Below are positions 9,621 through 28,935 of a stretch of 35,479 nucleotides of DNA, one piece after another. The notes beneath the pieces are model-generated. The model searched no databases, was not told the DNA's origin, and saw only the letters and a list, made by a program, of their open reading frames with translations. Source of the stretch: a virus; UHGV virus genome UHGV-0144289. One strand, given 5' to 3'. The translations under genes were made by a program, and so were the position numbers. The first letter of the stretch is position 1. Every line of letters starts with the position of its first letter.

Positions 9621-9658
9621 CCGCGCCTGACCAGCGCGATTTAACTGAGGAAAGACCA

Positions 9659-10327: not shown

Positions 10328-10330
10328 GGC

Positions 10331-10564: not shown

Positions 10565-10731
10565 AATTTTCAACACCTGATTTTATGCATTGCAGCCGCA
10601 GGACGCTGATGCTGTTCGTACTCAGTGCAAACGTTGTTGGCTGGATAGTCATTATCGCTCTGATATGGGCTGGATGTGAGGTTGCACAGTGGGCGCTGGA
10701 ATGTCTCCGCAGTAGTGGGGTGCTTGCGTGA
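10561..10731 (+). CDS. Small membrane protein (single hydrophobic helix)
   Basis: 56 aa; hydrophobic stretch LMLFVLSANVVGWIVIIALIWAG; start overlaps the previous stop (ATGA) and its stop overlaps the methyltransferase start. Confidence 0.45.
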   Translation: MKFSTPDFMHCSRRTLMLFVLSANVVGWIVIIALIWAGCEVAQWALECLRSSGVLA

Positions 10732-11318
10732 ATAACAAATACACCCTGATTTATGCGGATCCTCCATGGACTTACCGCGACAAAGCCAAAGACGGGGAAC
10801 GCGGCGCCGGGCACAAATACCAGACCATGACTGTGCTCGATATCTGCCGTCTCCCGGTCTGGGAACTGGCCGCTGAAAACTGCCTGCTGGCTATGTGGTG
10901 GGTACCGACTCAGCCGCTGGAGGCGTTGCGAGTAGTCGAGGCGTGGGGCTTCCGTCTGATGACCATGAAAGGCTTTACGTGGAACAAATGCTACAGCCGG
11001 CAGACCGACAAACTGGCCCTTGGAATGGGCCATTTGACCAGGGCGAACAGCGAGGATTGCCTTTTCGCTGTGCAGGGGAAATTACCCGCCCGGATGGATG
11101 CAGGGATCGTTCAGTCATTCACGGCCCCGCGTCTGGAGCATTCGCGCAAACCGGATATCGTGCGCGAAAAGCTGGTGCAGCTGCTGGGCGATGTGCCGCG
11201 TATTGAGTTATTCGCCCGCCAGTCGTCGCATGGTTTCGACGTGTGGGGCAATCAGTGTGAGTCGCCAGCGGTGGCGCTGCTGCCGGGCATTGCAGAATAT
11301 ATCGGGGAGGTAGCCTAA
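10728..11318 (+). CDS. DNA N6-adenine methyltransferase, MT-A70 family
   Basis: 196 aa; catalytic motif IYADPPW near the N-terminus, typical of MT-A70-like phage adenine methyltransferases. Confidence 0.85.
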   Translation: MNNKYTLIYADPPWTYRDKAKDGERGAGHKYQTMTVLDICRLPVWELAAENCLLAMWWVPTQPLEALRVVEAWGFRLMTMKGFTWNKCYSRQTDKLALGMGHLTRANSEDCLFAVQGKLPARMDAGIVQSFTAPRLEHSRKPDIVREKLVQLLGDVPRIELFARQSSHGFDVWGNQCESPAVALLPGIAEYIGEVA

Positions 11319-12958: not shown

Positions 12959-13555
12959 ATGGCGCAGTATTCTTTTGTAAAAGCACCCGGCGGTGTATTA
13001 ATTCCGGCAACGCCTGACGCCCGCGAATTCTTAGAAAAAAAAGTCCGCATGGGCGGTATTCTGTATGCGGATTTTAAACAGGCAAGGAACTCGGCATTTC
13101 ACCGTAAATTTTTTGCCCTCCTGAATCTGGGATTTGATTACTGGCAACCTTCCGGCGGTGCAATATCGCCAGCCGATAAAAAACTGGTTCGGGGTTACGT
13201 GCAGCTGGTGGCCCACTATGCCGGGCATGGCGACACATTGCAGGAACTGGCGGATCAGTATCTGCGCGATGAGGCAGAAAAACGCGCCGGCAATATCAGC
13301 GCGGTTAAATCGTTTGAAGCTTTCCGTTCCTGGGTAACTATCGAGGCCGGTTTTTATACCGAATACCAGATGCCTGATGGCACCACCCGCAAGGAACCCA
13401 AATCCATATCGTTCGCAAAAATGGACGATGTAGAATTTTCCCAGCTGTACAAATCCGTATTAGACGTCCTCTGGAATTTTATTTTATTCCGCACCTTCCC
13501 TAATCAGCAGGCAGCAGAAAACGCAGCCTCTCAGCTTTTCAGTTATGCGGCCTGA
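12959..13555 (+). CDS. DUF1367-like phage protein
   Basis: 198 aa; resembles the conserved lambdoid nin-region protein family (MAQYSFVKAPGG...FHRKFFALLNLGF) as I recall it. Confidence 0.6.
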   Translation: MAQYSFVKAPGGVLIPATPDAREFLEKKVRMGGILYADFKQARNSAFHRKFFALLNLGFDYWQPSGGAISPADKKLVRGYVQLVAHYAGHGDTLQELADQYLRDEAEKRAGNISAVKSFEAFRSWVTIEAGFYTEYQMPDGTTRKEPKSISFAKMDDVEFSQLYKSVLDVLWNFILFRTFPNQQAAENAASQLFSYAA

Positions 13556-13565
13556 GGCGGACACT

Positions 13566-14042
13566 ATGAAATTCAATATTCGCTCTCATATCGTCGAGAT
13601 GGATGAGGCCGACGCCTTGATCTTTGTGGGTTACCCCATCCACATCGGCTCGAATGGTTATGCAAAAGTCACCGGCTGGCATTTTGGCAAGGAAAGATAC
13701 CTTCATCGCGTCATCATGAATGCGGGGCCTCATGATGTTGTAGATCACATTGATGGTAATAAGCTCAACTGCACCCGCTCAAATCTGAGGATCTGCACAC
13801 AGGCCGACAATACCAAAAATGTGGGCTTGAGGAGTGACAATAGCTCAGGAATTCCGGGAATTTACTGGGTATCCACTCGCCTAAAATGGGCGGCGCAAAT
13901 TTCAGTTGATGGCAGGACCGTTAGTTTAGGCCGCTTTGATGAAATTGCCGATGCTATCAATGCCCGCCGGAAAGCAGAAGATTTGTATTACGGGGAGTTT
14001 GCAGCCAGCAAGGGGGTGCTTTGTGAAAAAGCGCGCCAGTAA
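13566..14042 (+). CDS. HNH endonuclease with AP2-like DNA-binding domain
   Basis: 158 aa from the ATG at 13566 (RBS GAGG); HNH core HRVIMNAGPHDVVDHIDGNKLNCTRSNLRICTQADN followed by AP2-like segment GIPGIYWVSTRLKWAAQISVDGRTVSLGRFDEIADA. Confidence 0.75.
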   Translation: MKFNIRSHIVEMDEADALIFVGYPIHIGSNGYAKVTGWHFGKERYLHRVIMNAGPHDVVDHIDGNKLNCTRSNLRICTQADNTKNVGLRSDNSSGIPGIYWVSTRLKWAAQISVDGRTVSLGRFDEIADAINARRKAEDLYYGEFAASKGVLCEKARQ

Positions 14043-14807: not shown

Positions 14808-15257
14808 GTGAAAAAAATGGTTCGACCGAAAAAAATCGTTGAGATGCCGGGGCAGGAAAAAGCGGCGCCGGAAGAAAAAACGTTCGTTACAGAGGGGCAG
14901 TTAATTACTGCTGAACAGACCGGCGCGCAGCAGCAGGGTAGCGATAGCGACGAACAGACCGTGCAGCAGAATGTTTCAACCCTGCTTGATGGTACTCAGT
15001 TGGCAGAACGTAACGCCATTCTAGCCACACTCAACGCGCAGGGCGCTGCGATCGTTGCCCGCTTCGAAGAGTACGGCTTCACCGACACTATCGGCCACCC
15101 GCTGACCAACTGTCTCGATTTCCTCAGTCTGGTACGCAAAGCCACTGATGTAAGCACTGGCGGCACAGCGGAGCAGGTGACAAACGAGGAAGGCAAAAAG
15201 CAACCCGTACGCAGTGCGCCGGTATTAACCGAACACGGCTGGCACGTTCCGGGCTAA
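14808..15257 (+). CDS. Hypothetical protein (acidic, Gln-rich N-terminus)
   Basis: 149-aa ORF with RBS ACAGGAG before a GTG start. Confidence 0.55.
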   Translation: MKKMVRPKKIVEMPGQEKAAPEEKTFVTEGQLITAEQTGAQQQGSDSDEQTVQQNVSTLLDGTQLAERNAILATLNAQGAAIVARFEEYGFTDTIGHPLTNCLDFLSLVRKATDVSTGGTAEQVTNEEGKKQPVRSAPVLTEHGWHVPG

Positions 15258-15267
15258 GGAGAATTTT

Positions 15268-15489
15268 ATGTGTGGTAGCGCACCAAAAGTTGTTCAGTCA
15301 GACCCGCAGGCCGAAGCCGACGCAGCAGCAGACGCAGCGGCCAAAGCTGCGAACGCTGACGCAGCAGCGCGCAAAAAGCGCAAACAGGGATCATCCCTGC
15401 TGGCCAGCGGCGCAGAAGGCGCAACGGATACAGGTTCTTCCCTGCTGTCCACTGGCGCACAGGCCGCAAAAAATACGTTAGGGGCTTAA
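15268..15489 (+). CDS. Small Ala-rich protein, paralogous to the N-terminal part of the 162-aa internal protein at 22827
   Basis: 73 aa; starts MC..., contains QAEADAAADAAAK and two GSSLLxxG motifs shared with the proteins at 17335 and 22827. Confidence 0.55.
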   Translation: MCGSAPKVVQSDPQAEADAAADAAAKAANADAAARKKRKQGSSLLASGAEGATDTGSSLLSTGAQAAKNTLGA

Positions 15490-15492
15490 TTC

Positions 15493-17118
15493 ATGGATCA
15501 ACTCGCCAGCCGGTTAATCAGGCGCGCTGACACGCTGAAAGCAAATCGCCAGGTGCACGAAAGCGTCTGGCGGGAATGCTACGACTACACCTATCCGCTG
15601 CGCGGGGCCGGGTTTTCGTCTGAGGTGCTGGACGCACAGAGCGCAAAGCACAAGGTTGCGAAGCTGCTGGACGGCACAGCCACCGACAGCGCCCGTATGC
15701 TGGCGTCCGCGCTTATGTCAGGGATGACCCCGGCGAATGCTCAATGGCTGAACCTCGACAGCGAATTACTTCCTGATGACGCTAAGGCGTGGTTGTCCAC
15801 CTGTGCAACGCTGGTATGGGAAAATATCCACGCCGCTAACTTTGACGCGGAAGGGTACGAGGCCAATCTCGATGTGGTCTGTGCTGGCTGGTTCGCGCTG
15901 TACGTCGATGAGGACAAGGAAGAGGGAGGATTTACCTTCCAGCAGTGGCCGCTGGCGCAATGCTTTGTGACTTCCACCCGCCGGGATGGCATCGTGGACA
16001 CGATTTATCGGTGCTATCAGCTCACCGCTGAACAGGCAGTGAAAGAATTCGGCGCGGACAAGGTAAGCGAAAAAATCCGCGATGCTGCAAAAAACAAACC
16101 TGACGATAAATTTGATTTCCTGCACTGCATTTTCCCGCGTGATACCTACGCCGTAAATGCGAAGCTGGCGCGCAATATGCGTTTTGCATCGTTCAACGTG
16201 GAAGTGAACGGCAAGCGTATCGTGCGTGAATCCGGCTATCACGAATTCCCTGTGTGCGTCCCGCGCTGGATGAAAATTCCCGGCGGCTCCTACGGTATCG
16301 GCCCGGTATACGACGCGCTGCCGGACTGCAAAGAGCTGAACGAAACCAAACGCATGGAGAAGGCCGCGCAGGATCTGGCTATCTCCGGTATGTGGATTGC
16401 TGAGGATGACGGCGTGCTCAACCCGCGAACGGTAAAAGTTGGCCCGCGCCGCGTCATCGTGGCGAACAGCACCGAAAGCATGAAACCTTTGCTCACCGGC
16501 GCAGATTTCAACGTGGCGTTTACCGCTGAACAGCGCCTGCAGGCTTCCATTCGCAAAATCATGATGGCCGATCAGTTGCAACCGCAGGACGGCCCGGCAA
16601 TGACTGCTACCGAAGTGCATGTGCGTGTCGCGCTGATCCGCCAGTTGCTTGGCCCGGTCTATGGACGATTCCAGGCTGAATACCTGCAACCGCTGGTGGA
16701 GCGCTGCTTCGGTATTGCGTTCCGCGCTGGCGTTTTTCCTCCCGCTCCCGAGAGCCTCCAGAGCGCCAATTTCAACGTGCGTTATATCTCCCCGCTGGCC
16801 CGTGCGCAGAAGCTGGAAGATGTGACCGCCATCGAGCGATACGGCCAGAACATCATGCAGCTGGCGCAGGCGTACCCGGATGTACTGGACAACATGGACA
16901 GCGACGAGGCGAGCAAGGTTGTCGGCGAGGCTCTTGGCGTTCCGGCAAAAGTTATGCGTTCCGCTGATGCGGTCGAGCAACTTCGACAGCAGCGCCAGCA
17001 GATGCAACAGCAGCAGGCGCAACAGCAGTTGCTGATGCAGGCCGGGACGGAAGCCGCCGGCGCAGCAGGGCAGGCAGCAGGCGCAATTATGGGACAACGA
17101 CTGGCGGGCAACCAATGA
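15493..17118 (+). CDS. Portal (head-to-tail connector) protein, T7 gp8-like
   Basis: 541 aa; size, position at the head of the structural module and Gln-rich C-terminal tail (QQRQQMQQQQAQQQLLMQAG) resemble the T7 gp8 connector. Confidence 0.75.
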   Translation: MDQLASRLIRRADTLKANRQVHESVWRECYDYTYPLRGAGFSSEVLDAQSAKHKVAKLLDGTATDSARMLASALMSGMTPANAQWLNLDSELLPDDAKAWLSTCATLVWENIHAANFDAEGYEANLDVVCAGWFALYVDEDKEEGGFTFQQWPLAQCFVTSTRRDGIVDTIYRCYQLTAEQAVKEFGADKVSEKIRDAAKNKPDDKFDFLHCIFPRDTYAVNAKLARNMRFASFNVEVNGKRIVRESGYHEFPVCVPRWMKIPGGSYGIGPVYDALPDCKELNETKRMEKAAQDLAISGMWIAEDDGVLNPRTVKVGPRRVIVANSTESMKPLLTGADFNVAFTAEQRLQASIRKIMMADQLQPQDGPAMTATEVHVRVALIRQLLGPVYGRFQAEYLQPLVERCFGIAFRAGVFPPAPESLQSANFNVRYISPLARAQKLEDVTAIERYGQNIMQLAQAYPDVLDNMDSDEASKVVGEALGVPAKVMRSADAVEQLRQQRQQMQQQQAQQQLLMQAGTEAAGAAGQAAGAIMGQRLAGNQ

Positions 17119-17348
17119 TCAAAAAAGACGTAACCCCTGAAGACTACCGGCGCATTTTCGAGGAGATGCCCGGCGGGCCGCAGGTGCTGGACGAATTAAC
17201 GCGCCGCTTCGGGCGTGAGGCGTATGTCAAAGGCGGTACCGAAGGCGACCGGGAAACCTGTTACCGGGCCGGACAGCGTTCCGTGCTCGATTTCATTCTG
17301 ATGCAAATCAACAAAGCAGACGGAGTAAACGACGATGTGGAAGTTTAA
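17115..17348 (+). CDS. Hypothetical small protein between portal and scaffold
   Basis: 77-aa ORF, start overlaps the portal stop (ATGA). Confidence 0.5.
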   Translation: MIKKDVTPEDYRRIFEEMPGGPQVLDELTRRFGREAYVKGGTEGDRETCYRAGQRSVLDFILMQINKADGVNDDVEV

Positions 17349-18183
17349 ACACTTATTCATGAACACCGAAACAGGTGCAGAAGCGCCAGCGGGTAACGCA
17401 GGAGGGGATGATGCTGGTAATAGCGATGGTACTCAAAATCCGGGCGGCGGTACTCCTGCTGGTACTTCGCTACTCAGCACCGGCGCGGGCGAACAAGGCG
17501 CGGATGACTGGCTACCTGAAAAATACCGCGTTATGGGCGATGACGGAAAACTCAACGTTGAAGGCTCAGCCCGCAAACTGGCGGATGCTTACACGCACCT
17601 TGAAAAGCGCATGGGCAGCGGCGACACGCCGCCGAAAACGGCTGATGAGTATGCGCCAAAGGTAGAGGTCGAGGGTTTTAAGTGGGACGAATTCAAAGCC
17701 GACCCGCGCATGCAATCCTTCATGAAATCGGCTCATGCCAAAGGCATCACCAACGATCAGATGGGTTTCATCCTGGGCGAATATGCACAGCTGGCCCCCG
17801 AACTGGTTAACGGTGCTGCGGCGCTGGATTCGGAAGCCGCCGCCACGCAGCTGCGCGAGACGTGGAAAACTGACGCCGAGTTTAATAAAAACATCGGTCT
17901 GGCTTTCCGGGCATTTAACTCTCTGGCAGATGACGGCGACAAAGGGCGCATGGATGAAATCGGCAATAACCCGATGGTGATCCGCATGCTGGCGAAAATC
18001 GGCGCTGAAATGCAGGAGGATGCGCCGGCGGGCGGCGATGTGAATCTCGAAGAACAGCAATCAATCCGTGACCTGATGAAGTCCCCGGCCTACATGGATC
18101 CTAAACACGCCGACCATGAGAACGTTTCCGCCCGGGTTCGCGCGTACTACCAGAAGCGTTACGGTGATCAAACTGTAGCGTGA
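17335..18183 (+). CDS. Scaffolding protein (T7 gp9-like)
   Basis: 282 aa, acidic, Ala/Gly-rich, predicted helical; located between portal and major capsid genes. Confidence 0.6.
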   Translation: MWKFKHLFMNTETGAEAPAGNAGGDDAGNSDGTQNPGGGTPAGTSLLSTGAGEQGADDWLPEKYRVMGDDGKLNVEGSARKLADAYTHLEKRMGSGDTPPKTADEYAPKVEVEGFKWDEFKADPRMQSFMKSAHAKGITNDQMGFILGEYAQLAPELVNGAAALDSEAAATQLRETWKTDAEFNKNIGLAFRAFNSLADDGDKGRMDEIGNNPMVIRMLAKIGAEMQEDAPAGGDVNLEEQQSIRDLMKSPAYMDPKHADHENVSARVRAYYQKRYGDQTVA

Positions 18184-18216
18184 CATGTCACGACAACCTA
18201 ACCAGAGGAAAGACCA

Positions 18217-18633
18217 ATGAGCGACAAAGATATCGAGCAGCAAATTCAGGCTAAAGGCTTAACCGCGCCGCGCGTTACGCCTGATCATATCGAGAGCGTT
18301 ATCAAAGAGTGCCATTATCTCAACGTCGGCGAAGCGGTTCAGGCGGGCTGGCCTGATAAGTCGGCAATGGACGATTGCAGCCCAGCGCTGAACCTGCTGA
18401 CGATTTGTGTTCTGGTGCTGCACAACGGCTTCACCGTCACGGGCGAAAGCGCCTGCGCCAGCCCGCAAAACTTCGACCCGGAGATCGGTCGCAAGATTGC
18501 CCGCGAGAATGCGGTTAACAAGATTTGGATGCTGGAAGGTTACCTGCTGAAACAAAAGCTCAGTGAGCAGTGTACCGATGAGCGCATGTGTGAAAACTGC
18601 TACTCCGGCCAGGGCGCCTGTAATAACAAGTAA
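18217..18633 (+). CDS. Hypothetical protein with Cys-rich C-terminus
   Basis: 138 aa; ATG preceded by GAGGAAAGACCA; C-terminal CTDERMCENCYSGQGACNNK. Confidence 0.55.
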   Translation: MSDKDIEQQIQAKGLTAPRVTPDHIESVIKECHYLNVGEAVQAGWPDKSAMDDCSPALNLLTICVLVLHNGFTVTGESACASPQNFDPEIGRKIARENAVNKIWMLEGYLLKQKLSEQCTDERMCENCYSGQGACNNK

Positions 18634-18656
18634 CACCGTGACCAGTCACAACCAGA

Positions 18657-18683
18657 AGCCAGCCTAACCCGCTGGCTTTTTTA
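18657..18683 (+). terminator. Intrinsic terminator upstream of the capsid gene
   Basis: Hairpin AGCCAGC-CTAACCC-GCTGGCT followed by TTTTTTA. Confidence 0.65.
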
Positions 18684-18686
18684 TTT

Positions 18687-18702
18687 GGTCGGGATTCCGA
18701 CC
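18687..18702. repeat. Late-region hairpin motif GGTCGGGATTCCGACC, copy 1
   Basis: 6-bp stem/4-nt loop palindrome; identical 20-mer TTGGTCGGGATTCCGACCGC also at 31396-31415. Confidence 0.8.
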
Positions 18703-18852
18703 GCGCACCTCGATAACAATCACTCCATAACCAGCCCGGCGGGGACGCCGGATACCTGATTTCTCCCGCAATGCGCCAGCGCCAACCGCATTGTGCAGAT
18801 TTGGGCCGGGAAACCGACACCCCGCAGGCGATTTTTTACTGGAGTGATTTTT

Positions 18853-19758
18853 ATGTCATTTGATGCAAACAAGAACATGATCACCGCTGCGTTTGTTACG
18901 CAGTTTCATGATTCTTTCGAAATTGCTGCACAGCAAAAGGATTCGCGCCTGCAAGCGGCTGTCCATGACCGTGGCAGCATCACCGGTGCGTCGTTCACCA
19001 TCAACGATATGGGTACCATTGAGATGAACCAGATCACCACGCGTTTCGGTGATACCGTCTGGGATGTTCCGGAAGCCGGTACCCGTAATGCGCTGATGGC
19101 CGACTACGGCGTTTTCGTCCCGGTCGAGAAACGCGACCTGCGCAAGCTGATTGCCGACCCGCAGGGGCCGTATTTGCAGCTCACCCTGTCCGCCGCCAAC
19201 CGCAAAAAAGACGATGTAATTTACCGCGCGCTGCTCGATGCGGTACTGCGTAAGACTGAGAACAACGGCGCGTATGCATCCGTTACCCTCCCGGCCTCGC
19301 AGAAAATCGTTGCTGGCGGTACTGGCATGACCAAAGCCAAACTGATCGCAGCAAAAGCGATGTTCCGCCGTAACGAATGTGACGAGCAGAACGGCGAAGA
19401 GCTGTACATGACGTACAACGCCGACATGCTGACGCAGATCCTCAGCGATACCACGCTGACCAGCGCCGACTTTATGGCGGTGAAAATGCTTCAGGAAGGT
19501 TCGGTGTCGTCTAAATGGCTGGGCTTTAACTGGCTGGCATACGAGAAGCTGGATTCTGCCACTGCCGAAAACGTCACCACCAAAACCGCCGCCGCCTGGT
19601 GTAAGTCCGCTGTGCATTTCGGTACCGGCGCTGAGTACAACGTCGATATCGGCCCGCGTCGCGATAAAAATAACACCATCCAGATTTCCGTTGATGCGTC
19701 CTATGGCGCTGGCCGCGCCAACGAGAAAAAAGTCGTTGCCATCGATTTTGTAGCATAA
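18853..19758 (+). CDS. Major capsid protein
   Basis: 301 aa from the ATG at 18853; follows the scaffold gene, has a long structured 5' leader and is followed by a terminator, as is typical for highly expressed capsid genes. Confidence 0.65.
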   Translation: MSFDANKNMITAAFVTQFHDSFEIAAQQKDSRLQAAVHDRGSITGASFTINDMGTIEMNQITTRFGDTVWDVPEAGTRNALMADYGVFVPVEKRDLRKLIADPQGPYLQLTLSAANRKKDDVIYRALLDAVLRKTENNGAYASVTLPASQKIVAGGTGMTKAKLIAAKAMFRRNECDEQNGEELYMTYNADMLTQILSDTTLTSADFMAVKMLQEGSVSSKWLGFNWLAYEKLDSATAENVTTKTAAAWCKSAVHFGTGAEYNVDIGPRRDKNNTIQISVDASYGAGRANEKKVVAIDFVA

Positions 19759-19771
19759 AGCCGCTGGTACC

Positions 19772-19801
19772 TTTGCCGGGGGATCCCTCCCGGCCTTTTT
19801 T
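19772..19801 (+). terminator. Terminator-like hairpin after the capsid gene
   Basis: GCCGGGGGATCCCTCCCGGC followed by CTTTTTTT. Confidence 0.55.
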
Positions 19802-19817
19802 CATCTGAGGTAAGGCT

Positions 19818-20381
19818 ATGGCTTCCAGTATCTCTATCTGTTCTAACGTACTGCTGGCGCTCGGCGCTCATCCCATTAACAGCTTCGACGAAGCGACCGA
19901 ACACGCCCGCCTGTGCTCCAATATTTACCCTACCGTACGCAATGACCTGCTGCGAAAACATCCATGGAACTGCGCGGTAAAACGCGTCGTGCTCTCACCG
20001 TCCAGCACCGCGCCCGCGTTTGGTTTCGGCTACCAGTTCCCGCTGCCGGGCGATTTAATCCGGATCCTGTCCGTTGGCCGTGAGTATGAGGATATCGGGT
20101 ACCGCGTTGAAGGAAACCGCCTGCTGGCGAATCAGAACGTAATTTATCTGCGCTACCTGTTTCGTAACGAGGATGAATCGACGTGGGATTCGTCGCTGGT
20201 CAATCTGGCCGAAGCGTTCATGGCCGCAAAGCTGGCGTACGCCGTCACCGGCTCCGCGAGTCTGCGCGACAGTCTGACGCAGGAAGCTGCATTCCTTCTT
20301 CGCCAGGCCAAATCTATCGACGGACAGGAAGAACCGCCGGAAACGCTGGACGGCTATCCAACTTATGAATCGAGGTTCTGA
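19818..20381 (+). CDS. Tail tubular protein A-like (T7 gp11-like)
   Basis: 187 aa; size and position after the capsid gene match T7 gp11. Confidence 0.5.
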   Translation: MASSISICSNVLLALGAHPINSFDEATEHARLCSNIYPTVRNDLLRKHPWNCAVKRVVLSPSSTAPAFGFGYQFPLPGDLIRILSVGREYEDIGYRVEGNRLLANQNVIYLRYLFRNEDESTWDSSLVNLAEAFMAAKLAYAVTGSASLRDSLTQEAAFLLRQAKSIDGQEEPPETLDGYPTYESRF

Positions 20382-22372
20382 TGCGCGCGAACCTAATAAA
20401 AACCAATTTTACCGCGGGTGAAATTTCCCCGCGCCTGATGGGGCGTGTTGATATCGCCCGCTATGCCAACGGTGCAAAAATTATCGAAAACGCGGTGTGC
20501 GTGGTGCAGGGCGGTGTCGTTCGCCGACCGGGTACGCGCTTTGCCGCTGCCGCTAAATATGGTGACCGGACAGCACGACTGATCCCCTACGTCTTTAACC
20601 GCTCGCAGGCGTACATGCTCGAATTTGGCGACGGGTATCTGCGCATCTACCAGAACGGCCGGCAGCTGGTAAACGACGATAATACCCCGTATGAAATCGC
20701 CAGCCCGTACACCGTCGATATGTTGTCTGAGGTGAATTACGTGCAGGGCGCTGACACGATGTTTTTAGTGCACCAGAGCGTCCCGCCGCACCGCTTGCAG
20801 CGTAAGGGGCAAACTGATTGGGTACTGGAAGCCGCGCCGTTTATCGTGGAACCATTCGACGAAATCCGCGACACGCCGGAGAAATGGTGTAAGCCATCGG
20901 TTAAAGAATTCGTCGGCTCAGAAATCACGCTGACGCTCAGTGATGCCGAACCCGCAGATGATGACGATTCCCCCGCGTTTACTGGTACCGGCTGGATATC
21001 GGAGGACGTTGGTTCGTACGTTCGCATTAACAGCGGTCTGGTGCTAATTAAGAGCATCACCAGCGCGCAGATTGCTGTCGGCACCATCCGCACCGATTTA
21101 AGCGCAACGCAGGCGGCATCCCCCGGAGCCTGGACACGTGAAGATACTGTCTGGACGGAGGAATTTGGCTACCCCGGCGCGGTGACGCTGTACCAGCAGC
21201 GGCTGGTTCTGGCTGGTTCCCCGCAGTACCCGCAAACAATCTGGTGGAGCGAAACCGGCGTTTACCTGTCGTTTGAGCTGGGAACGGACGACGACGACGC
21301 GATCAGCTTTACGCTGTCTTCTGACCAGTTAAACCCGATCGTGCATCTGGCGCAGATGAATACGCTTATCGCGCTGACGTACGGCGGCGAGTTTACAATC
21401 ACTGCCGGCAGCGACGCGGCGATCACCCCGACCAATATTTCGGTAAAAAATCCCAGCCCGTACGGCTGCAACAGCATTCGCCCGGTTCGTGTCGGTACCG
21501 AAATTATGTTTATCCAGCGTGCCGGGAAAAAACTGTATGCCGTGGCGTATGACCCCGACAGCTACGTTTCGTATTCCGCCAATGATTTAACGGTGCTGGC
21601 CGAACACATCACGGCCGGCGGCGTCCTCGATATGGCGTATCAGCAACAGCCTGATGCGTTCGTGTGGCTGATCCGCGCCGATGGCGTACTGGTGACGATG
21701 GGTATCGACCGGGCGCAGGATGTAGTCGCATGGTCACGCCAGATCACCGATGGCGTTTTTGAATCGGTGGCGAGTATTCCCTCGGAAAGCGACGACGTGA
21801 TTTATGTTCTGGTGCGCCGGGAAGTTAACGGCCAGACCGTTCGTTATGTTGAAGTATTCGACAGCAACCTGAATACCGATTCCGCAGTAACCGGCTCCAG
21901 TTCAGAAGGTGCCACCACGTGGACAGGTCTTTCTCACCTCAATGGAAAAACGGTTGATGTGGTGGCCGATGGTTCCGTGATGCCGCAGGCAACGGTAACA
22001 GACGGGCAAATCACTCTCAGCCGCAAAGCGAAAAAAATCGAAGTAGGCCTGCATTACGAAACCACCATCCAGACGCTGACGCCGGAAATCTCAACGACCG
22101 AAGGCACCACGCAGAACGCCCGCAAGCGTACCAGCGAAGTCACGCTCCGCTTTATGGAAACCACTGGCGCGGAGTGCAACGGTCAGGTGATCCCCTTCCG
22201 TACCTTCGGCCCAAAAATCCTTAACCAGCCCGCGCCACTTTTCACCGGTGATCATTATTTCGGGAAACTTGGCTGGGAGCGCGGGGAAGACACTTTGATT
22301 ATTCAGCAACGCCAGCCGCTGCCGTTTCATCTGCTGGCGATTATTTTCACGTTCTCCAGCAACGGGGGCTAA
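20381..22372 (+). CDS. Tail tubular protein B-like (T7 gp12-like)
   Basis: 663 aa; size and position match T7 gp12; start overlaps the previous stop. Confidence 0.5.
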   Translation: MRANLIKTNFTAGEISPRLMGRVDIARYANGAKIIENAVCVVQGGVVRRPGTRFAAAAKYGDRTARLIPYVFNRSQAYMLEFGDGYLRIYQNGRQLVNDDNTPYEIASPYTVDMLSEVNYVQGADTMFLVHQSVPPHRLQRKGQTDWVLEAAPFIVEPFDEIRDTPEKWCKPSVKEFVGSEITLTLSDAEPADDDDSPAFTGTGWISEDVGSYVRINSGLVLIKSITSAQIAVGTIRTDLSATQAASPGAWTREDTVWTEEFGYPGAVTLYQQRLVLAGSPQYPQTIWWSETGVYLSFELGTDDDDAISFTLSSDQLNPIVHLAQMNTLIALTYGGEFTITAGSDAAITPTNISVKNPSPYGCNSIRPVRVGTEIMFIQRAGKKLYAVAYDPDSYVSYSANDLTVLAEHITAGGVLDMAYQQQPDAFVWLIRADGVLVTMGIDRAQDVVAWSRQITDGVFESVASIPSESDDVIYVLVRREVNGQTVRYVEVFDSNLNTDSAVTGSSSEGATTWTGLSHLNGKTVDVVADGSVMPQATVTDGQITLSRKAKKIEVGLHYETTIQTLTPEISTTEGTTQNARKRTSEVTLRFMETTGAECNGQVIPFRTFGPKILNQPAPLFTGDHYFGKLGWERGEDTLIIQQRQPLPFHLLAIIFTFSSNGG

Positions 22373-22824
22373 TGATGATCCGTAATGCAACCGCCGGTGA
22401 TATTCCGGCGCTTATCGAACTGGGAACCCGGATGTACCTGGAATCCCGCTATTCCGAAAACTCACCCTTTGACGCGGACAAATGCGCGGAACTGGCTGAG
22501 AGCCTGATTTATTCCCCCGCCGGATGCGTGCTGGTGGCAGAGAAAAACGGCCTGGTGATTGGCTGGCTCGGCGGCGGCATCGCGGAGCAGTTTTTTTCCC
22601 GCCAGTTGATGGCGTTTGAATATGGCCTGTTCGTCGCTCCGGAGTACCGGGGCGGCAGCGCGGGCCCACGGCTGGCCCGTGCATTTATCGAATGGTCGAA
22701 AGAACACGGCGCCGCAGTGATCAACATGGGGATCACCACGGGCGTCCATGCCGAACGTACTGGCCAGCTTTATTCCCGCCTCGGTCTGCAACGTACCGGG
22801 CTGCTTTATTCGATGGAGGTTTAA
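22372..22824 (+). CDS. GNAT-family N-acetyltransferase
   Basis: 150 aa; acetyl-CoA binding motif region LFVAPEYRGGSAGPRLARAFIEW; embedded between tail and internal virion protein genes. Confidence 0.7.
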   Translation: MMIRNATAGDIPALIELGTRMYLESRYSENSPFDADKCAELAESLIYSPAGCVLVAEKNGLVIGWLGGGIAEQFFSRQLMAFEYGLFVAPEYRGGSAGPRLARAFIEWSKEHGAAVINMGITTGVHAERTGQLYSRLGLQRTGLLYSMEV

Positions 22825-22826
22825 CG

Positions 22827-23315
22827 ATGTGTACAGGTGTTGAAATCGCACTGGTGGCTTCTTCGGTTCTCGCTGCTGGCGGGGCAGTGGCCAGCGGCCA
22901 GCAGCAAAAGAAAATGGCGAACTATCAGGCCGCGCAGGCTGAAGCCGACGCCGAAGCATCAAAAGCAGCGGCAAAAGTTGAAGCGGAGCGTATTCGTAAA
23001 GCCGGTCGCCAGCAGGCATCTGCCGCCAATGCTGCGTTGGCAGCTTCAGGCGTTGAGACGGGAGAGGGAACGGCGCTCCGTGTCACGTCAGGTATTGCAG
23101 GGGATGCGGAGCAGGACGCCTATCAGACAATCCTTAATGGCGTGAATTCTTCTAATCGCCTGCAGGCGCAGGCACAAGCCGACAGGATCAGCGGCAGTAA
23201 TGCGGCGACAGCGGGGAATATTAGTGCTGGCAGTTCATTACTTAGTGCTGGCGGAACTGCATACAGCGGCTGGAAAAAAGCAAAAACAGGCAAATACGGT
23301 TTATATGCGGAGTAA
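22827..23315 (+). CDS. Internal virion protein (T7 gp14-like)
   Basis: 162 aa; hydrophobic N-terminus, Ala/Gln-rich; shares motifs with the 73-aa protein at 15268. Confidence 0.5.
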   Translation: MCTGVEIALVASSVLAAGGAVASGQQQKKMANYQAAQAEADAEASKAAAKVEAERIRKAGRQQASAANAALAASGVETGEGTALRVTSGIAGDAEQDAYQTILNGVNSSNRLQAQAQADRISGSNAATAGNISAGSSLLSAGGTAYSGWKKAKTGKYGLYAE

Positions 23316-23320
23316 GTGAC

Positions 23321-26032
23321 GTGAGAATTCCAACGGGTAATTTTGGTAATGTGACACCGCAGGCACAGCAGACGCGTGTCGCTGTTAGCAATGTAGGCAC
23401 TATAGGCAATGCGGTGTCTGGTTTTGGGACCGCTACAGGGCAGGTAGCAGAACAAGTACAGCATGAGCAGGATAAAGCCGATGTGGCAGCCACGCAGGCG
23501 ATTCTGACTGATCTGGAAGCTAAATCTAATGACCGCTGGGAAAACCCGGAGACGGGCGCCACGGTCACTCGTCAGGGCTTTAAATCGTCCGGTGTGGTAA
23601 CCGATATGGATAAGGCCGACGCTGGCGATTACGAGGAAGCGCGGAAGCGCGTACCGCCCAACCAGTTAAACTATTTTGATGCGCAGTGGAAAGCAGGGCA
23701 GGTACGCCGGACAAGTACCTACAGCGGTTTCGAGCGTGCACAGACGGATGAGGCCCAGCGGCAGCAGCTTAATGCGACGGTGACCACTTCCGTCGAACAA
23801 GAGGCCAGCGCATACGATAATCCGATGCAGGCAGGGCTGATACGTAGCGCCCGTAAACACTCGATCGAGATGTATGGCCAGGCGCGTGGCTGGCCGCAGG
23901 AGCGCATCGACGCGGCGGTATCAGAAGCGAACCAAAAAGCGCTGGAGCAGCGCGCGCAGAACTACGCGGTAACCAATCCCACTGGCTGGCTGAATGGCGA
24001 TTTTACGTTGATTAACAGCAGCACCGGCGAACTCGATATGCGCGCCGTTGGCCTGGTGGAGTCCGGTGGTAAGCACCGCAATGCGGATGGTAGTCTTGTT
24101 ACATCGCCCGCTGGCGCGCAGGGTGAATTTCAGTTGATGCCGGACACAGGGAAAGAACTGGCGGCTAAACGTGGCGTGGAATACAACCCGGACGATCCTG
24201 TGCAGCATGCGCAGCTGGCGCGTGATTATGCCGGGCAGCTCAGTAAAAAATACCAGTCAGAACCACTGGCCGGGGCCGCGTATAACTGGGGGATGGGTAA
24301 CGTCGATAAACTGATCGCCAAAGTGGGCGACCCGCGCAAAGGCGAAATCTCGATGGCGGATTTCGTTAAGCAGCTACCCGCAGAAACGCGCGGTTGGTTG
24401 TCCCGCTACAACAAAAATAAAACCGGTCTCGACCCGGTAGCAGTAAACAAAATCGACAATATCGCCGAAGCGCAGATCCGGCAGCAGCGTACGGCGCTGC
24501 GCCAGCAGATTGACCCGATTCTCAATAATACAATGGCGCAGCTGTATAACGGCGAGGTGCCGGATGCTATGCCGAACGCCTCCACCATTTTGTTTGCGTA
24601 TGGTGAGCAGGGGCAAACAGCGGTCAAGCAGCTGGATATCGCGATTGATAACGCCAGAACCTTCCAGGCTATTCAGTACGCCACCCCGGCAGAACAGCAG
24701 GCCGAACTGGCGAAGGTGAAGCCGCAGGCAAACGATCCCGATTTTGCGCTAAAACTTGATGCACACGGCAAACTTAGCGCGCTGGTGCAGAAGAGCAACG
24801 CCAATATTCAGGCGCAGCGCGACTCCGCCCGCTTTAACGATGCGCTGCTCTCCGGCGAGAAACTCGACCCGAGCAATAAATCTATGCAGAGGGCGGCGGA
24901 CAATACGCCATCGGCGCTTAATTTCCGCATTAACGATGCAACCACCCACGATGCTATCGTACAGCAGGTAAACCAGACCGGCATTGTTCCGTCGCAGGTA
25001 ACATCACAGCTCAATGCTATTTCCCGCTCCAGTAGCTCAGATGTAGTGAAGCAAGGCGCTGAAATATTCAATAGGCTTTACGACTCTAAATCTTCTAACG
25101 TCAGTGATATGCCAAAAGATATACAAAGTTTTTATCTGACAATTAAGCAATTGACCGAAGCTGGTATGGCTTCTGATGAGGCAGTGAAACAGGCACAGAA
25201 TATAACCTATAACCAGAACGATGCATTAAAAAATCAGTTAACTTCGACGCAGAGCACTAAAGAATATAAAAGCGAGCGAGATAGTGCTATGGATTCAGCT
25301 CGAAATAGTATGGCTCAGTGGTTCAGAATTGATCCAAAGGCAAGCGATACAACAACTGATGCAGTTAATTTTCGAAATGACTACCAGTCCCTTTACGATA
25401 TCAACTATCGAAATTCTGGTGGGAATTCTGAAATTGCCAAAAAAATGACCAACACTCAAATCTCTCGTAACTGGAGCATTAGCGAAGTGAACGGCAAGGC
25501 CCAGTTCATGAAATATGCACCAGAAGCACTATATAACTTTGGTCCGTCAGGTTGGCAGGCTGAACTGTGGAAAGAAAAAAAAGAGGAACTAATGTATGGC
25601 GAGCGTAATGAGGAGATCTCTACCAGCCCAACGCAGTTAGGAATCACGTCAGGAACTGCAACAAATATTATCTCAAACACCCCCGAGTCTAAAGTTGGTG
25701 GTGAATTGGAAATTGTGCCTGATGTATATACTCCAAGAATTAAAGATTATGCAATTTGGATTCGCTTTAAGGATAAAGATGGTAATGAAAAGGCACAGCC
25801 TTATAACGACAAATTTGGTAGGCAAATGCGGTGGAGGCCATCCCTAGAGGAATGGGGGCCTTACCAGAAAATGCAGAAGGAACGAGAGCAGAAAGAACAG
25901 GATGAAATTTCGCGCGGAAAAGATATTCGCGGATTTAAAGCGAAACATCGAGCATTGGATGAGCAGTACCAGCGTTTGCATGATGAGCGACTTGAACGTA
26001 CGAAAAATTATTTTTCATGGAGTAATGAATAA
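23321..26032 (+). CDS. Internal virion / ejection protein with lytic transglycosylase domain
   Basis: 903 aa; transglycosylase-like motif GLVESGGKHRNADGSLVTSPAGAQGEFQLMPDTG around nt 24050-24180, as in the N-terminal domain of T7 gp16. Confidence 0.65.
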   Translation: MRIPTGNFGNVTPQAQQTRVAVSNVGTIGNAVSGFGTATGQVAEQVQHEQDKADVAATQAILTDLEAKSNDRWENPETGATVTRQGFKSSGVVTDMDKADAGDYEEARKRVPPNQLNYFDAQWKAGQVRRTSTYSGFERAQTDEAQRQQLNATVTTSVEQEASAYDNPMQAGLIRSARKHSIEMYGQARGWPQERIDAAVSEANQKALEQRAQNYAVTNPTGWLNGDFTLINSSTGELDMRAVGLVESGGKHRNADGSLVTSPAGAQGEFQLMPDTGKELAAKRGVEYNPDDPVQHAQLARDYAGQLSKKYQSEPLAGAAYNWGMGNVDKLIAKVGDPRKGEISMADFVKQLPAETRGWLSRYNKNKTGLDPVAVNKIDNIAEAQIRQQRTALRQQIDPILNNTMAQLYNGEVPDAMPNASTILFAYGEQGQTAVKQLDIAIDNARTFQAIQYATPAEQQAELAKVKPQANDPDFALKLDAHGKLSALVQKSNANIQAQRDSARFNDALLSGEKLDPSNKSMQRAADNTPSALNFRINDATTHDAIVQQVNQTGIVPSQVTSQLNAISRSSSSDVVKQGAEIFNRLYDSKSSNVSDMPKDIQSFYLTIKQLTEAGMASDEAVKQAQNITYNQNDALKNQLTSTQSTKEYKSERDSAMDSARNSMAQWFRIDPKASDTTTDAVNFRNDYQSLYDINYRNSGGNSEIAKKMTNTQISRNWSISEVNGKAQFMKYAPEALYNFGPSGWQAELWKEKKEELMYGERNEEISTSPTQLGITSGTATNIISNTPESKVGGELEIVPDVYTPRIKDYAIWIRFKDKDGNEKAQPYNDKFGRQMRWRPSLEEWGPYQKMQKEREQKEQDEISRGKDIRGFKAKHRALDEQYQRLHDERLERTKNYFSWSNE

Positions 26033-28935
26033 TGCCAATTTACCCCACACCCAGCGAATTCAGTAATGGTTATATACCTGCTGGTAGCGCCCTGGATGCC
26101 CCAGTAGGGTTCGATATTGATTTACCTGAAGGTGCAAACCCGGAACCTCAACCGCCACAACCGTCCGTATGGAGCGCTGCATTCCGACAGAATAACCTAC
26201 TAGCAGGGATTTTTCGGCCTGCAAAACAATTTGAACCGGCTGAAGGGTATAACCCTTACGCTGATAAGAATGAAATTCACGGCTATGAGCAATGGGGATC
26301 TGCTTTCGCAGATTCTCAGTCACCAGAAGAAACAGCCTGGATTAAAAACCAGATTGACGATGAAAACGAAGACCGCCGTGTACTGTCCGAGGCTGGCACA
26401 GAGGGAACTTTAGCCAGTATCGCTGCTGGGGCTATCGATCCTGTCACGGTGGCTTCGATGTTCATCCCCGGCGCCCAGGGAACTCTGGTTGCGCGCATTG
26501 GTTCGCAGGTTGCTATCGGTGCTGCTGGTACCGCGCTTAGCGAGGTTGTGCTCAACAACGAACAGTATACCAGAACAGCCAGGGAGAGTGCCGCGCATAT
26601 CACAGCCGGCGCACTTCTCAGCGGTGTATTTGCTACTGCTGGCGCTATGATCACCCCATCGGTAAGAAATGCGGCAACCCGGGAAGTAGCCGAGGCGCTC
26701 GATAATATGAATGCCTCGCCAACGATTAATAACGCAGCCGACGCCCTGGCGGATACTTTACCGAACGGTGGCAGCGTCGGCGCTATGCGTATTCGCGAGG
26801 CGACGCTGGAAGACCTCACGCCAGTGTCCGGCGGCCCGCTCGGCAAGCTGGCTAAAAAGGCCGGTAGCTATCTGACGCCGATCACCCGCCTGATGGAATC
26901 CCCATCAAAAGAAGCGCGCCGGACAGCGCTGGAGCTGGCGGAGAATAACTTCACGCTGGAAGGCAACCTGCGCGGTATCGAAACTCCGGTAGCTGCCGAG
27001 ACGCGCGTACGTGGCTGGCGCCGCGAAGAGGCGGCCGTCGTTACTGCTAATAAGCAGGCATACACCCAGTATAAAGCCGAGGGCGGCGATCTGGGTTATA
27101 CGGCCTTCCGTGAACAGGTTGGTGAGGCGCTGCGTAACGGCGACGTGCACGTTAATGCGAAAGTGCAGGAAGCGGCGCAGGCAATGCGTACGGTCATTAA
27201 CCGCGTGAAGACAGCCCAGCAGGAACTGGGCTTACTCCCGCCGGATGCCGAATTGAAAGCGATGGGGCAGACCAGCTATTTCCCGCGCGTGTACAAGGTG
27301 GGGAAAATCGTTAGCGAGCGCGATAAATTCCGCAATATGCTGGTTGACTGGTGGTCACGCGGTGAGAAAACCATGTCCCGCGAAGATGCCGAAATCGCCG
27401 CCGATACCACTATTAACCGTATTGTCGGGGCCAAAATTCCGCAGGAGTTCGCCAACGTCTTTATGGTGAAAGCGCCGGGTAGCACTAAATCGCGTACGTT
27501 GAGTGTTCCCGATCGTCTGATGAAAGACTATCTGGAGAGCGATGCAAATTACGTCCTGCAGCGTCATATCCGCGAAGCCTCAGCGGAGATCGAATTAACC
27601 CGCACCTTTGGCAACAAATCGCTGGATTCGCAGCTTGCCGCCATCCAGGACGAATACGACGCGCTGATGCGTTTACGCCCGGCAGAACAGGAAAAGCTGG
27701 CGAAGGCGCGCGAAGCCGACCTGCGCGATATTCTGGCGCTCCGCGATCGCCTCGTTGGAACCTACGGTATGCCGGATGATCCATCATCATTTTTCGTTCG
27801 CGCCGGTGCTTTCCTGCGTAGTGCCAACTTTGTAACGAAACTCGGTGGCATGACGGTATCCGCTATTCCGGATCTGGCGCGCGGCATGATGGTTAACGGC
27901 TTCAGCAATACCATGCGTGGATATGGCGCGCTGATCACTCGATCACCGGCTTACCTCGCCAGCCGGGCGGAGCAGAAGAAAATGGCTGTAGGGCTGGAAA
28001 CTATTCTTCAAACCCGCTCGCGTACGATGGGCGATCTGGTGGATAGCTCTTCGCGCACCACTGCGATCGAAGCGGGCATGGAGCGCATTACCGATGTGTT
28101 CGGCAAGCTGACCATGATGGGCCACTTTGACGACATGAACAAATCGGTAAATGGCATGATTACTTCAGACGGTATTTTGTCAGGTGCGTTCCCGGCGAAA
28201 CGTCTGGCTAAGCTCGGCATCAATGACAAAATGGCCGAACGCATCCAGAAAGAGTTTCAGAAGCACGGCGAAGTCATTCAGGGCTGGCATATCGGCAATT
28301 TCGAAAAATGGGATGACCAGTACGCCGCCGGCTTGCTGCAATCTGCGGTACTGAAAGACGTAAACAATACCGTTATCACGCCGGGTATCGGTGATACGCC
28401 GCTATGGGCCAGTACCCCGCTGGGGAAAACTGTATTCCAGTTTAAGTCTTTTGCTACGGCATCCTATAACCGCGCGACGCTCGGTGGCCTGCAGGAAGGT
28501 ACCGCGCAATTCTATTACGGTACCGCCTTCCAGATTGGCCTGGGCTCATTGACCTATGCGCTTAAGCAGGCGGCTAACGGTCGCGAGGTTGATTTGACGC
28601 CGCAGAAGATGGTACTAGAGGGTATCGACCGTTCGGGTATCCTCGGCCCGCTGATGGAATACAACAACATGGCGGAAAAGGCATCTGGCGGCATGATAGG
28701 ACTTGGGCCATTGCTCGGCACCGGTACGCAATCCCGTTATGCCAGCCGCGGCTTTATCGGTTCTGCTCTGGGGCCAACCTTTGGCCTGCTGGATACTGTA
28801 ACCGATGTGACCGCTGGCGTGCTGAATGGCGACGCTGGAGACCGGGTCCTGCATAGCGCGCGAACGCTGTTACCGGGCAATAACCTGTTCTGGATCGCGC
28901 CGCTGATTAACCAGGTCGATCCCGGTATGCGTTGA
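26032..28935 (+). CDS. Large internal virion / DNA ejection protein
   Basis: 967 aa; position and size consistent with T7 gp15/gp16-type core proteins. Confidence 0.55.
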   Translation: MPIYPTPSEFSNGYIPAGSALDAPVGFDIDLPEGANPEPQPPQPSVWSAAFRQNNLLAGIFRPAKQFEPAEGYNPYADKNEIHGYEQWGSAFADSQSPEETAWIKNQIDDENEDRRVLSEAGTEGTLASIAAGAIDPVTVASMFIPGAQGTLVARIGSQVAIGAAGTALSEVVLNNEQYTRTARESAAHITAGALLSGVFATAGAMITPSVRNAATREVAEALDNMNASPTINNAADALADTLPNGGSVGAMRIREATLEDLTPVSGGPLGKLAKKAGSYLTPITRLMESPSKEARRTALELAENNFTLEGNLRGIETPVAAETRVRGWRREEAAVVTANKQAYTQYKAEGGDLGYTAFREQVGEALRNGDVHVNAKVQEAAQAMRTVINRVKTAQQELGLLPPDAELKAMGQTSYFPRVYKVGKIVSERDKFRNMLVDWWSRGEKTMSREDAEIAADTTINRIVGAKIPQEFANVFMVKAPGSTKSRTLSVPDRLMKDYLESDANYVLQRHIREASAEIELTRTFGNKSLDSQLAAIQDEYDALMRLRPAEQEKLAKAREADLRDILALRDRLVGTYGMPDDPSSFFVRAGAFLRSANFVTKLGGMTVSAIPDLARGMMVNGFSNTMRGYGALITRSPAYLASRAEQKKMAVGLETILQTRSRTMGDLVDSSSRTTAIEAGMERITDVFGKLTMMGHFDDMNKSVNGMITSDGILSGAFPAKRLAKLGINDKMAERIQKEFQKHGEVIQGWHIGNFEKWDDQYAAGLLQSAVLKDVNNTVITPGIGDTPLWASTPLGKTVFQFKSFATASYNRATLGGLQEGTAQFYYGTAFQIGLGSLTYALKQAANGREVDLTPQKMVLEGIDRSGILGPLMEYNNMAEKASGGMIGLGPLLGTGTQSRYASRGFIGSALGPTFGLLDTVTDVTAGVLNGDAGDRVLHSARTLLPGNNLFWIAPLINQVDPGMR

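Follow-up and report, generated by a model that had tools for sequence, protein, structure and literature searches.

The window analysed here, a stretch of 35,479 nt from the virus genome UHGV-0144289, is a temperate podovirus of a Klebsiella/Enterobacterales prophage type with a T7-like virion module. Three proteins of that module carry the same short peptide motif: a 73-amino-acid protein (p73), the scaffolding protein and a 162-amino-acid internal virion protein. The p73 gene (15268-15489, + strand; phrog_9015, E = 3.6e-17) lies 3 nt upstream of the portal gene (15493-17118, +; phrog_332, E = 3.7e-179). A Bbp19-like gene (17115-17348, +; PF25181, 46.8 bits) stands between the portal and scaffold genes, and the scaffold gene (17335-18183, +; 282 amino acids; phrog_3742, E = 3.6e-81) stands between the portal and major capsid genes. 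Then come the genes of a gp49/66-like protein (18217-18633), the major capsid protein (18853-19758), the adaptor (19818-20381) and the gp12-like nozzle protein (20381-22372). A GNAT acetyltransferase gene (22372-22824, +; PF00583, 43.7 bits) abuts the gene of the 162-amino-acid, gp14-like internal virion (ejection) protein (22827-23315, +; phrog_418, E = 1.5e-41). It is followed by the gene of a gp15-like internal protein with an SLT transglycosylase domain (23321-26032, +; phrog_1044, PF01464) and by that of a 967-amino-acid protein, named gp16-like by its position only (26032-28935).

Close homologues of the window proteins came from Klebsiella, Raoultella, Enterobacter, Serratia and Yersinia genomes. 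In a near-identity DNA search, the Yersinia phages YeP4-6 were the sole cultured relatives; their genomes encode an integrase and a repressor. A tblastn search of cultured phages with p73 and the 162-amino-acid protein, queries limited by the low-complexity filter, likewise reached only YeP4-6. The portal protein was matched by tblastn in 257 phage records, and its relatives at 23-45% identity belong to epsilon15-, BPP-1-, VP2-, pelagiphage- and Xanthomonas CP2-type phages.

The pattern G[ST]SLL[SA].G had exactly four matches in a six-frame regular-expression scan of the window, all of them on the + strand and in the long open reading frames (ORFs) of the three genes. Two are in p73, within its residues 41-63: copy 1, GSSLLASG (15388-15411, +), in which S43, L44, L45 and G48 are at least 90% conserved, and copy 2, GSSLLSTG (15433-15456, +). 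The scaffold copy, GTSLLSTG, forms residues 43-50 of the N-terminal arm (17461-17484, +; GTSLLSTGAG at 17461-17490) and is identical to p73 copy 2 at 8 of 9 residues. The copy in the gp14-like protein is GSSLLSAG, residues 135-142 (23229-23252, +). The scan confirmed the shared motif that the first-pass annotation had reported, together with the two GSSLL copies in p73 and the scaffold coordinates 17461-17490. For the third protein it had named the right peptide but placed it at ~23230-23256, one base off frame, because the in-frame peptide with its next G occupies 23229-23255. The gp14-like protein also has a degenerate N-terminal copy, ASSVLAAGG (residues 11-19; 22857-22883, +), within its hydrophobic N-terminal segment. 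The codons of the two p73 copies are nearly the same, which suggests that an internal duplication within p73 gave rise to them; the scaffold and gp14-like copies use other Ser and Leu codons.

By composition, 0.0004 occurrences of the full pattern and 0.035 of G[ST]SLL are expected in the window proteome of ~10,300 residues, and 20,000 shuffles per protein, run for all three, did not produce the full pattern once. The pattern was set after the data had been seen, so these figures overstate the significance, and we therefore relied on independent tests in homologues, which are free of that problem. Small proteins, gp14-like proteins and scaffolds each keep the motif at a fixed position, among phages whose portal identities fall to ~25-40%. 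The first-pass annotation had held that lack of conservation in related phages would mark the motif as a low-complexity coincidence; it was conserved in all three families. The family-wide core is [ST]-[LIVM]-L-(small)-x-G amid Gly, Ser, Thr and Ala, of which the window clade has the form G-[ST]-S-L-L-[SA]-x-G. The motif is a genuine short linear element with three non-homologous carriers.

The 26 homologues of p73 keep the MCG start, QAEADAAA, the basic cluster RKKRK, both GSSLL copies and a K..LGA end. RKKRK (15370-15384, +) stands directly before motif copy 1, and its R35, R38 and K39 are invariant or nearly so in the p73 family alignment. In the C-terminal KNTLGA (15469-15486, +) K68 is nearly invariant and G72 is invariant. 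This end is the counterpart of a deeply conserved terminal (K)[ST]LLG[QGA] in the small-protein family, whose distant, portal-adjacent members were found in epsilon15, BPP-1, FBPa42, Pelagibacter phage Baldr and Xanthomonas phage CP2. RRRR or RRNR stands at the RKKRK position in these distant proteins. The 83 distinct small-protein C-termini collected over 250 loci have a basic cluster, then [ST][ST][ILM]L[TS]G and then the terminal (K)[ST]LLG. Thus epsilon15 gp3 reads MCIGSKP...RRRRAAAGRSSTLLTGAQG...GKTLLGQ, the FBPa42 protein ...RRRRARMAGVSSTILGG...TKTLLGG, BPP-1 Bbp22 ...SGTMLTGPQG...KSTLLGQ and the Baldr protein GTILTSG...SSSLLGG. A PDB sequence search with the p73 family profile gave no relevant match.

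The CP2 member of this family is a 68-amino-acid ORF (L169:9164-9370; MCSSAPKVKPV...RQSTILAGN...KTALGV; phrog_831, E = 1.8e-9) that lies inside the 5' extension of the annotated portal gene (9234-11294). Its place there makes it probable that the record sets the CP2 portal start too far upstream and has overlooked the small gene.

The 162-amino-acid protein starts at the ATG at 22827 (MCTGV...), inside a longer mechanical ORF from 22692, and its homologues are 155-165 amino acids long and begin MC. We class it as a gp14 homologue on its sequence and gene order, in line with the internal virion protein proposed in the first-pass annotation. Its gene follows the nozzle and GNAT genes and precedes the SLT-bearing gp15-like gene, which is the placement of gp14. 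Against PF24072 (T7_gp14) the window protein scored 20.8 bits, under the 27-bit cut-off, and the epsilon15 counterpart passed it with 31.3 bits; some close homologues of the window protein carry a precomputed PF24072 match. One gp14-like lineage starts MCWMAAIPIAIS, close to the MCWAAAIPIAIS of T7 gp14, and the end KAPI.AA.GT.TGR is common to epsilon15 and T7 gp14. AlphaFold2 predicted helices at residues 4-73, 80-121 and 137-154 with low confidence (mean pLDDT, the predicted local distance difference test score, 47), and a PDB sequence search with the protein gave no relevant match.

The motif of the gp14-like protein is part of a C-terminal element, GSSLLSAGGTAYSGW (residues 135-149; 23229-23273, +), which adds a conserved Tyr and Trp. 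Residues 135-149 are 78-100% conserved in 120 close homologues, except T144 (69%) and S147 (56%). In 12 of 18 lineages the motif lies ~20-45 residues from the C-terminus. The same element reads FSSLLSGAGDVADSWY in BPP-1, FSSLLTGGSQAYGNY in FBPa42, FTTLLTAPLQAYGAY in epsilon15, GSTLLQAGIGYNTY in Baldr and GLMSAGSLYASQY in phiKMV.

The 282-amino-acid protein is a scaffold as judged by gene position and predicted architecture, as the first-pass annotation had also called it. Besides lying between the portal and major capsid genes, it has the flexible arm, helical body and C-terminal helix pair of a scaffold in the AlphaFold2 model. Residues 1-61 of the model are without secondary structure (pLDDT 21-27) and the rest is helical; the C-terminal helices at residues 240-276 have a pLDDT of 74-85, and the overall mean is 41.8. 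Within this predicted disordered arm, residues 43-53 (G-[TN]-S-L-L-S-T-G-A-G-E) are nearly invariant in 120 homologues, and residues 11-42 are variable with insertions and deletions. An exhaustive search yielded 150 representatives at 33-55% identity, in which the island persists as x-S-[LVI]-L-x-x-[GA], its median distance to a following W-[LI]-PEK[YF]RV anchor being 17 residues. The strict motif form was present in 42 of 130 distant scaffolds, ~26-fold over the 1.6 expected from composition-preserving shuffles. BPP-1-type scaffolds begin MTTET[LM][MI]T.

To compare the families with one another, we used a 9-residue position-specific scoring matrix (PSSM) built only from small-protein motifs outside the window clade. 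In 12 of 18 gp14-like lineages it reached 7.5 bits or more within the 45 C-terminal residues, where 110,000 background positions gave an expectation of 1.1% (binomial P ~5e-20, for lineages that are not fully independent). The degenerate N-terminal copy of the window gp14-like protein also matched, at 8.9 bits, and the gp14-like protein was the top scorer of its own locus in 52% of 121 loci. Scores of at least 6 bits were found in the N-terminal arms of 29 of 129 scaffold representatives, against 2.4% expected.

Our preferred interpretation, held tentatively as a real possibility that falls short of being probable, is that the motif is a putative docking or packing element at the portal-core vertex, because one such role covers all three carriers, including a scaffold that never leaves the cell. 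All three carriers, p73, the gp14 homologue and the scaffold, would be found close to the portal in the procapsid interior. With very small residues on either side, the Leu-Leu pair would form a knob that packs into a narrow hydrophobic groove. This groove could belong to a common receptor in the portal-core assembly, for which the portal protein (its clefts or barrel) and the gp15-like protein (its cylinder) are candidates, or to other motif-bearing segments. By its flexible N-terminal arm the scaffold would attach to the portal vertex and keep the small protein and gp14 in place during procapsid formation. When the scaffold exits, the same segments of p73 and gp14 would remain as flexible ends of the core, and once ejected they could act as anchors or as the lining of the nozzle and outer-membrane channel. 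The data show the motif itself, its excess over chance, its fixed position in each family and its place in the predicted disordered arm of the scaffold; that it binds, what it binds and that the scaffold hands its partners over is what we infer from them. The first-pass annotation had suggested a capsid-targeting or portal-docking signal, a putative role that is plausible. In favour of docking we count the four copies, the scaffold island and the cross-family PSSM scores and, from published work, the contacts of T7 gp6.7 and gp14 with the portal barrel and gp15 and the anchoring of gp7.3 in the nozzle (PMC11784390), the binding of Ar-KM gp34 to its gp14 homologue (10.64898/2026.05.18.726046), the P22 scaffold loop in its portal cleft (PMC12005531) and the targeting sequence common to T4 internal proteins (PMC3012670). 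A wider form of the idea seems doubtful to us: the core [ST]-[LIVM]-L-small-x-G would be a general docking peptide of T7-related podoviruses (epsilon15-, BPP-1-, pelagiphage- and enterobacterial prophage-types), with one receptor groove at the portal-core vertex serving the scaffold arm, the wedge protein and gp14, and would set both head packing and injection and be transplantable to foreign cargo.

Several observations count against docking. The motif carries little information, and the PSSM is imperfectly specific, as it also matches the window portal protein (LASALMSGM), the gp16-like protein and p149, the protein encoded upstream of p73. T7 gp14 has GSSAASAYASG at the same place, with AA where the family has LL, and the motif was absent from Acinetobacter-, FBPa42- and epsilon15-type scaffolds and is therefore not universal. 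No within-genome co-variation was found between the motif variants of the small protein and those of the gp14 C-terminus (18 lineages, permutation, P = 0.46), a result that helps neither docking nor a role restricted to the ejection channel. The motif-bearing parts coincide with the unresolved parts of the T7 and Ar-KM structures (PMC11784390; 10.64898/2026.05.18.726046). N- and C-terminal segments of gp14 are predicted to span the outer membrane (PMC13320782; 10.64898/2026.05.18.726046), and the conservation of the gp14 ends is thereby explained without docking.

This last point leads to the main alternative, a serious one for p73 and gp14 that we hold nearly as possible as docking, namely that the motifs of p73 and gp14 are small-residue amphipathic segments acting only after ejection, with the gp14 termini entering the outer membrane and the small protein wedged or anchored in the nozzle, and that the scaffold copy is convergent and unrelated. 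Both ends of the gp14-like protein bear the motif (ASSVLAAGG and GSSLLSAGG, residues 11-19 and 135-143), and the Tyr and Trp after the C-terminal copy are as expected at a membrane interface. In Ar-KM, the gp41 termini (residues 1-25 and 151-181) are unseen in the structure and predicted to be membrane-spanning and to project outside the nozzle (10.64898/2026.05.18.726046); the phiKMV counterpart there reads VAGLMSAGSLYASQY. The Peru-2 paper makes the same prediction for gp14-type termini (PMC13320782). In T7, 6 gp14 and 12 gp6.7 form the post-ejection channel in the nozzle, and the C-terminal loop of gp7.3, KKSLSVARSSGGGIN, anchors between nozzle subunits beside the DNA end (PMC11784390). Several clades without the scaffold motif also retain it in the small protein and gp14. 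However, the C-terminal gp14 segment is weakly hydrophobic (Kyte-Doolittle mean ~0.35 over 23 residues, against ~1.5 for the N-terminal one, by hand calculation), and the p73 copies lie in a polar Gly/Ser/Asp-rich tail that is unable to span a membrane. The ~26-fold excess of the scaffold island at a fixed position also speaks against this alternative, and the near identity of the window copy with p73 copy 2 is much for pure convergence. A coincidence of low complexity, with no specific function, is scarcely credible and was already disfavoured by the homologue tests. The motif is indeed short, made of common small residues and Leu and set in Gly/Ser/Ala-rich regions, and its definition after the fact and the PSSM matches in unrelated proteins could be cited for chance; but conservation at fixed positions in three families, the excess over composition-preserving shuffles and background rates, and an invariant island in a variable arm speak against it.

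Common descent, with p73 as a shortened gp14 paralogue that inherited the motif and a scaffold copy of separate origin, we regard as improbable. The first-pass annotation had proposed a duplication from the Met-Cys start and the QAEADA...AAK segments of p73 (residues 14-26) and the 162-amino-acid protein (residues 37-50). Both features are present. The proteins of 16 of 25 small-protein lineages and of at least 10 of 18 gp14-like ones begin with Met-Cys, a start that only 3% of the long ORFs of these loci have; T7 gp6.7 and gp14 share it (window 15268-15273 and 22827-22832; T7 L086:1365 and L086:10229; epsilon15 L087:3037 and L087:11586), and it is a real feature of both families. Smith-Waterman alignments exceeded shuffles in the Klebsiella/Yersinia clade (z = 3-4.5; QAEADA...RKKRK against QAEADA...RIRKAG) and in Acinetobacter phages (z = 4, aligned from the Met-Cys start). 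The BPP-1 and BUCT708 small proteins have a gp14-like hydrophobic N-terminus, and the BUCT708 protein weakly matches phrog_418 (E = 0.029). However, the aligned stretch is an Ala/Gln-rich helix, a kind of sequence against which shuffles make a lenient control, and the BPP-1, FBPa42 and L209 pairs showed no excess over shuffles. BLASTP of p73 against the 162-amino-acid protein aligned the motif alone (E = 0.043), and hhalign of diverse small-protein and gp14 family alignments gave a probability of 1.2%. Since these comparisons gave so little, the Smith-Waterman signal is modest and clade-limited and the motif codons differ between the genes, the duplication is unproven and the proposal is not supported. 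Descent alone would also leave the retention of the motif unexplained. We consider it very improbable that the motif is a recognition site for a shared enzyme or chaperone, whether a GNAT or gp13-like protein, a Bbp19-like protein or one of the host's proteases or chaperones. In its favour, the gp14-like or small-protein gene has a GNAT or gp13-like neighbour in the window, epsilon15, CP2, ZP6, Acinetobacter phages, Baldr and phiKMV, the Bbp19-like gene lies between portal and scaffold, and T7 gp6.7 and gp7.3 are reportedly degraded by cell proteases (PMC11784390). But the argument rests on gene adjacency, which co-expression of assembly factors explains equally well, and the structural papers report no modification of these proteins. 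Docking at the portal-core vertex remains our preferred reading, at the strength given above.

Further observations concern the same genes and their neighbours. Removal of the initiator Met would leave an N-terminal cysteine in the Met-Cys proteins, to which the structural papers give no role. Acinetobacter phage MD-2021a has a third Met-Cys protein, MCGALSASREAF..., of 65 amino acids, encoded between its GNAT and gp14-like genes (L082:8591-8788). GNAT or GNAT-like genes stand next to the gp14-like gene in the window (22372-22824), epsilon15 (gp13, L087:11122-11586), CP2 (L169:18392-18868), ZP6 and an Acinetobacter phage, and next to the small-protein gene in Baldr and phiKMV (ORF28); L083:4860-5297 and L250:3398-3871 are the positions of two of these genes. 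The epsilon15 gp13 and CP2 ORF21 proteins were the only homologues that matched Phage_T7_Gp13 (PF11090), weakly and below the cut-off (E = 0.009 and 0.0005), and because of these matches T7 gp13 may be a degenerate member of this GNAT set. BLASTP detected no similarity between the window GNAT and T7 gp13. At the corresponding gene position, epsilon15, BPP-1, Baldr, Vibrio and ZP6 phages have what look by eye like counterparts of the Bbp19-like protein, a possible assembly factor.

Protein p149 (149 amino acids, 14808-15257) has a variable low-complexity N-terminal region with a small hydrophobic island, GQLIT in the window and xLLLNSV or GQLLNS in relatives, and its conserved C-terminus, PVLTEHGW, recurs in the counterpart from the Acinetobacter phage. 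The protein may itself belong to the virion or act in its assembly. Its NVSTLLDGT was considered as a fourth motif and rejected, as the homologues read VQQRVA.LLD, a helix-like stretch. At the early/late junction upstream of the virion module, a 165-amino-acid ORF (13545-14042) resembles by eye an HNH/AP2-type homing endonuclease (HIDGNKLN..., NTKN). The GC content falls to ~0.42 at 25001-26000 and 32001-34000, from ~0.55-0.57 in the rest of the virion module. These stretches correspond to the C-terminal part of the gp15-like gene and to an 839-amino-acid ORF (31494-34013), and the dips suggest mosaic acquisition.

It is not settled how internal core or ejection proteins come to the portal when T7-like phages build their procapsids, and the best current structures do not show the ends of gp14 or those of the small gp6.7/gp7.3/gp34-type proteins. 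A motif common to those ends and to the scaffold arm, from Klebsiella prophages to pelagiphages, is a concrete target for mutation in studies of how the proteins are recruited, how the scaffold hands them over and how the channel forms. A true targeting peptide could serve to pack proteins into podovirus heads that would then deliver them to Gram-negative cells. Should the motif prove to act only in the membrane or channel, it would still mark the functional tips of the ejection channel.

Among known systems, the gp14-like protein is nearest to T7 gp14, Ar-KM gp41 and Peru-2 P2_38, with which it shares a gene position between the nozzle and gp15-like genes and a size of ~160-200 amino acids. 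A Met-Cys start followed by a hydrophobic N-terminus is common to T7 gp14 and its homologues, the helices predicted at low confidence would form a similar two-helix hairpin, and a C-terminal segment of small residues ending near Tyr or Trp is found in T7 (IMGSSAASAYASG) and phiKMV (GLMSAGSLYASQY) as well. The window protein differs in scoring under the Pfam cut-off, and its C-terminal motif is singled out in no published account. In T7, 12 gp6.7 and 8 gp14 subunits connect the portal barrel to the gp15 ring, both proteins contacting each; gp14 residues 130-196 and the C-terminal part of gp6.7 are not resolved (PMC11784390). Ar-KM gp34 binds mainly the gp14 homologue, at the portal barrel (10.64898/2026.05.18.726046).

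The p73-type proteins resemble the small proteins encoded upstream of portals, namely epsilon15 gp3, T7 gp6.7 and gp7.3 and phiKMV/Ar-KM gp34, at a level where homology is not demonstrable. Like the T7 and Ar-KM/phiKMV proteins, they are short and their gene lies just upstream of the portal gene. The N-terminal pattern MC-x-S-x-P-K-[VI] is shared with T7 gp6.7 (MCFSPKIKTP), and the tail after the basic cluster resembles T7 gp7.3 KKSLSVARSSGGGINI and phiKMV RRRRNQAGTGVSQTLGINY. Nevertheless, p73 and six distant counterparts had no match to PF17570 (T7 gp6.7) or PF11653 (T7 gp7.3/gp34) at E up to 1-10, and no PHROG links p73-type proteins to gp6.7 or gp7.3, T7 gp6.7 being in another PHROG. The small-protein profile gave non-significant scores of 5.9 bits to phiKMV ORF29 and 5.1 bits to T7 gp7.3. 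Li et al. describe an 'ejection wedge' that is short and helical; it has a basic cluster towards each terminus, and its A/Q/P-rich core leads into an acidic stretch (10.64898/2026.05.18.726046). The p73-type proteins match most of this layout of low-complexity core, acidic stretch and C-terminal basic cluster. With 73 amino acids, an A/Q/D-rich core and the C-terminal RKKRK, p73 shows part of it and lacks the N-terminal basic cluster; epsilon15 gp3 comes closer, with AAPEVQAAPQEQ, then DDEE, then RRRR. The [ST][IL]LTG...K[ST]LLG tail of the p73 and epsilon15 gp3 families is not described in the T7 gp6.7/gp7.3 and Ar-KM gp34 papers.

Encapsulin cargo-loading peptides are short, Gly/Ser/Leu/Ile-rich, lie in flexible C-terminal tails and dock cargo on the inner face of an HK97-fold shell. 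The window motif may resemble them, with the difference that they bind the shell protein and that two of the three window carriers sit on the portal-core complex and not on the shell. The capsid targeting sequence (CTS) of T4 is N-terminal and is cleaved off by the prohead protease. PHROG and Pfam annotation showed no protease domain between the portal and capsid genes of the window, so that the locus departs from a T4-type CTS; the window motif is moreover internal or near the C-terminus, the scaffold is itself a carrier, and the targeting role is putative. The T4 CTS is shared by the internal proteins IPI-III and directs their entry into the prohead scaffolding core (PMC3012670). In P22, the scaffold has a flexible segment with hydrophobic portal contacts that is released on maturation: its C-loop sits in a hydrophobic cleft between the wings of adjacent portal subunits (PMC12005531). 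P22 belongs to another phage lineage with another scaffold family, and its loop is near the C-terminal part and has no sequence resemblance to the motif. The motif was described in none of the literature found by a full-text search. As far as could be found, it is an undescribed feature, kin to the short peptide signals for internal capsid proteins and, like the T4 CTS, a short peptide common to otherwise unrelated internal proteins.

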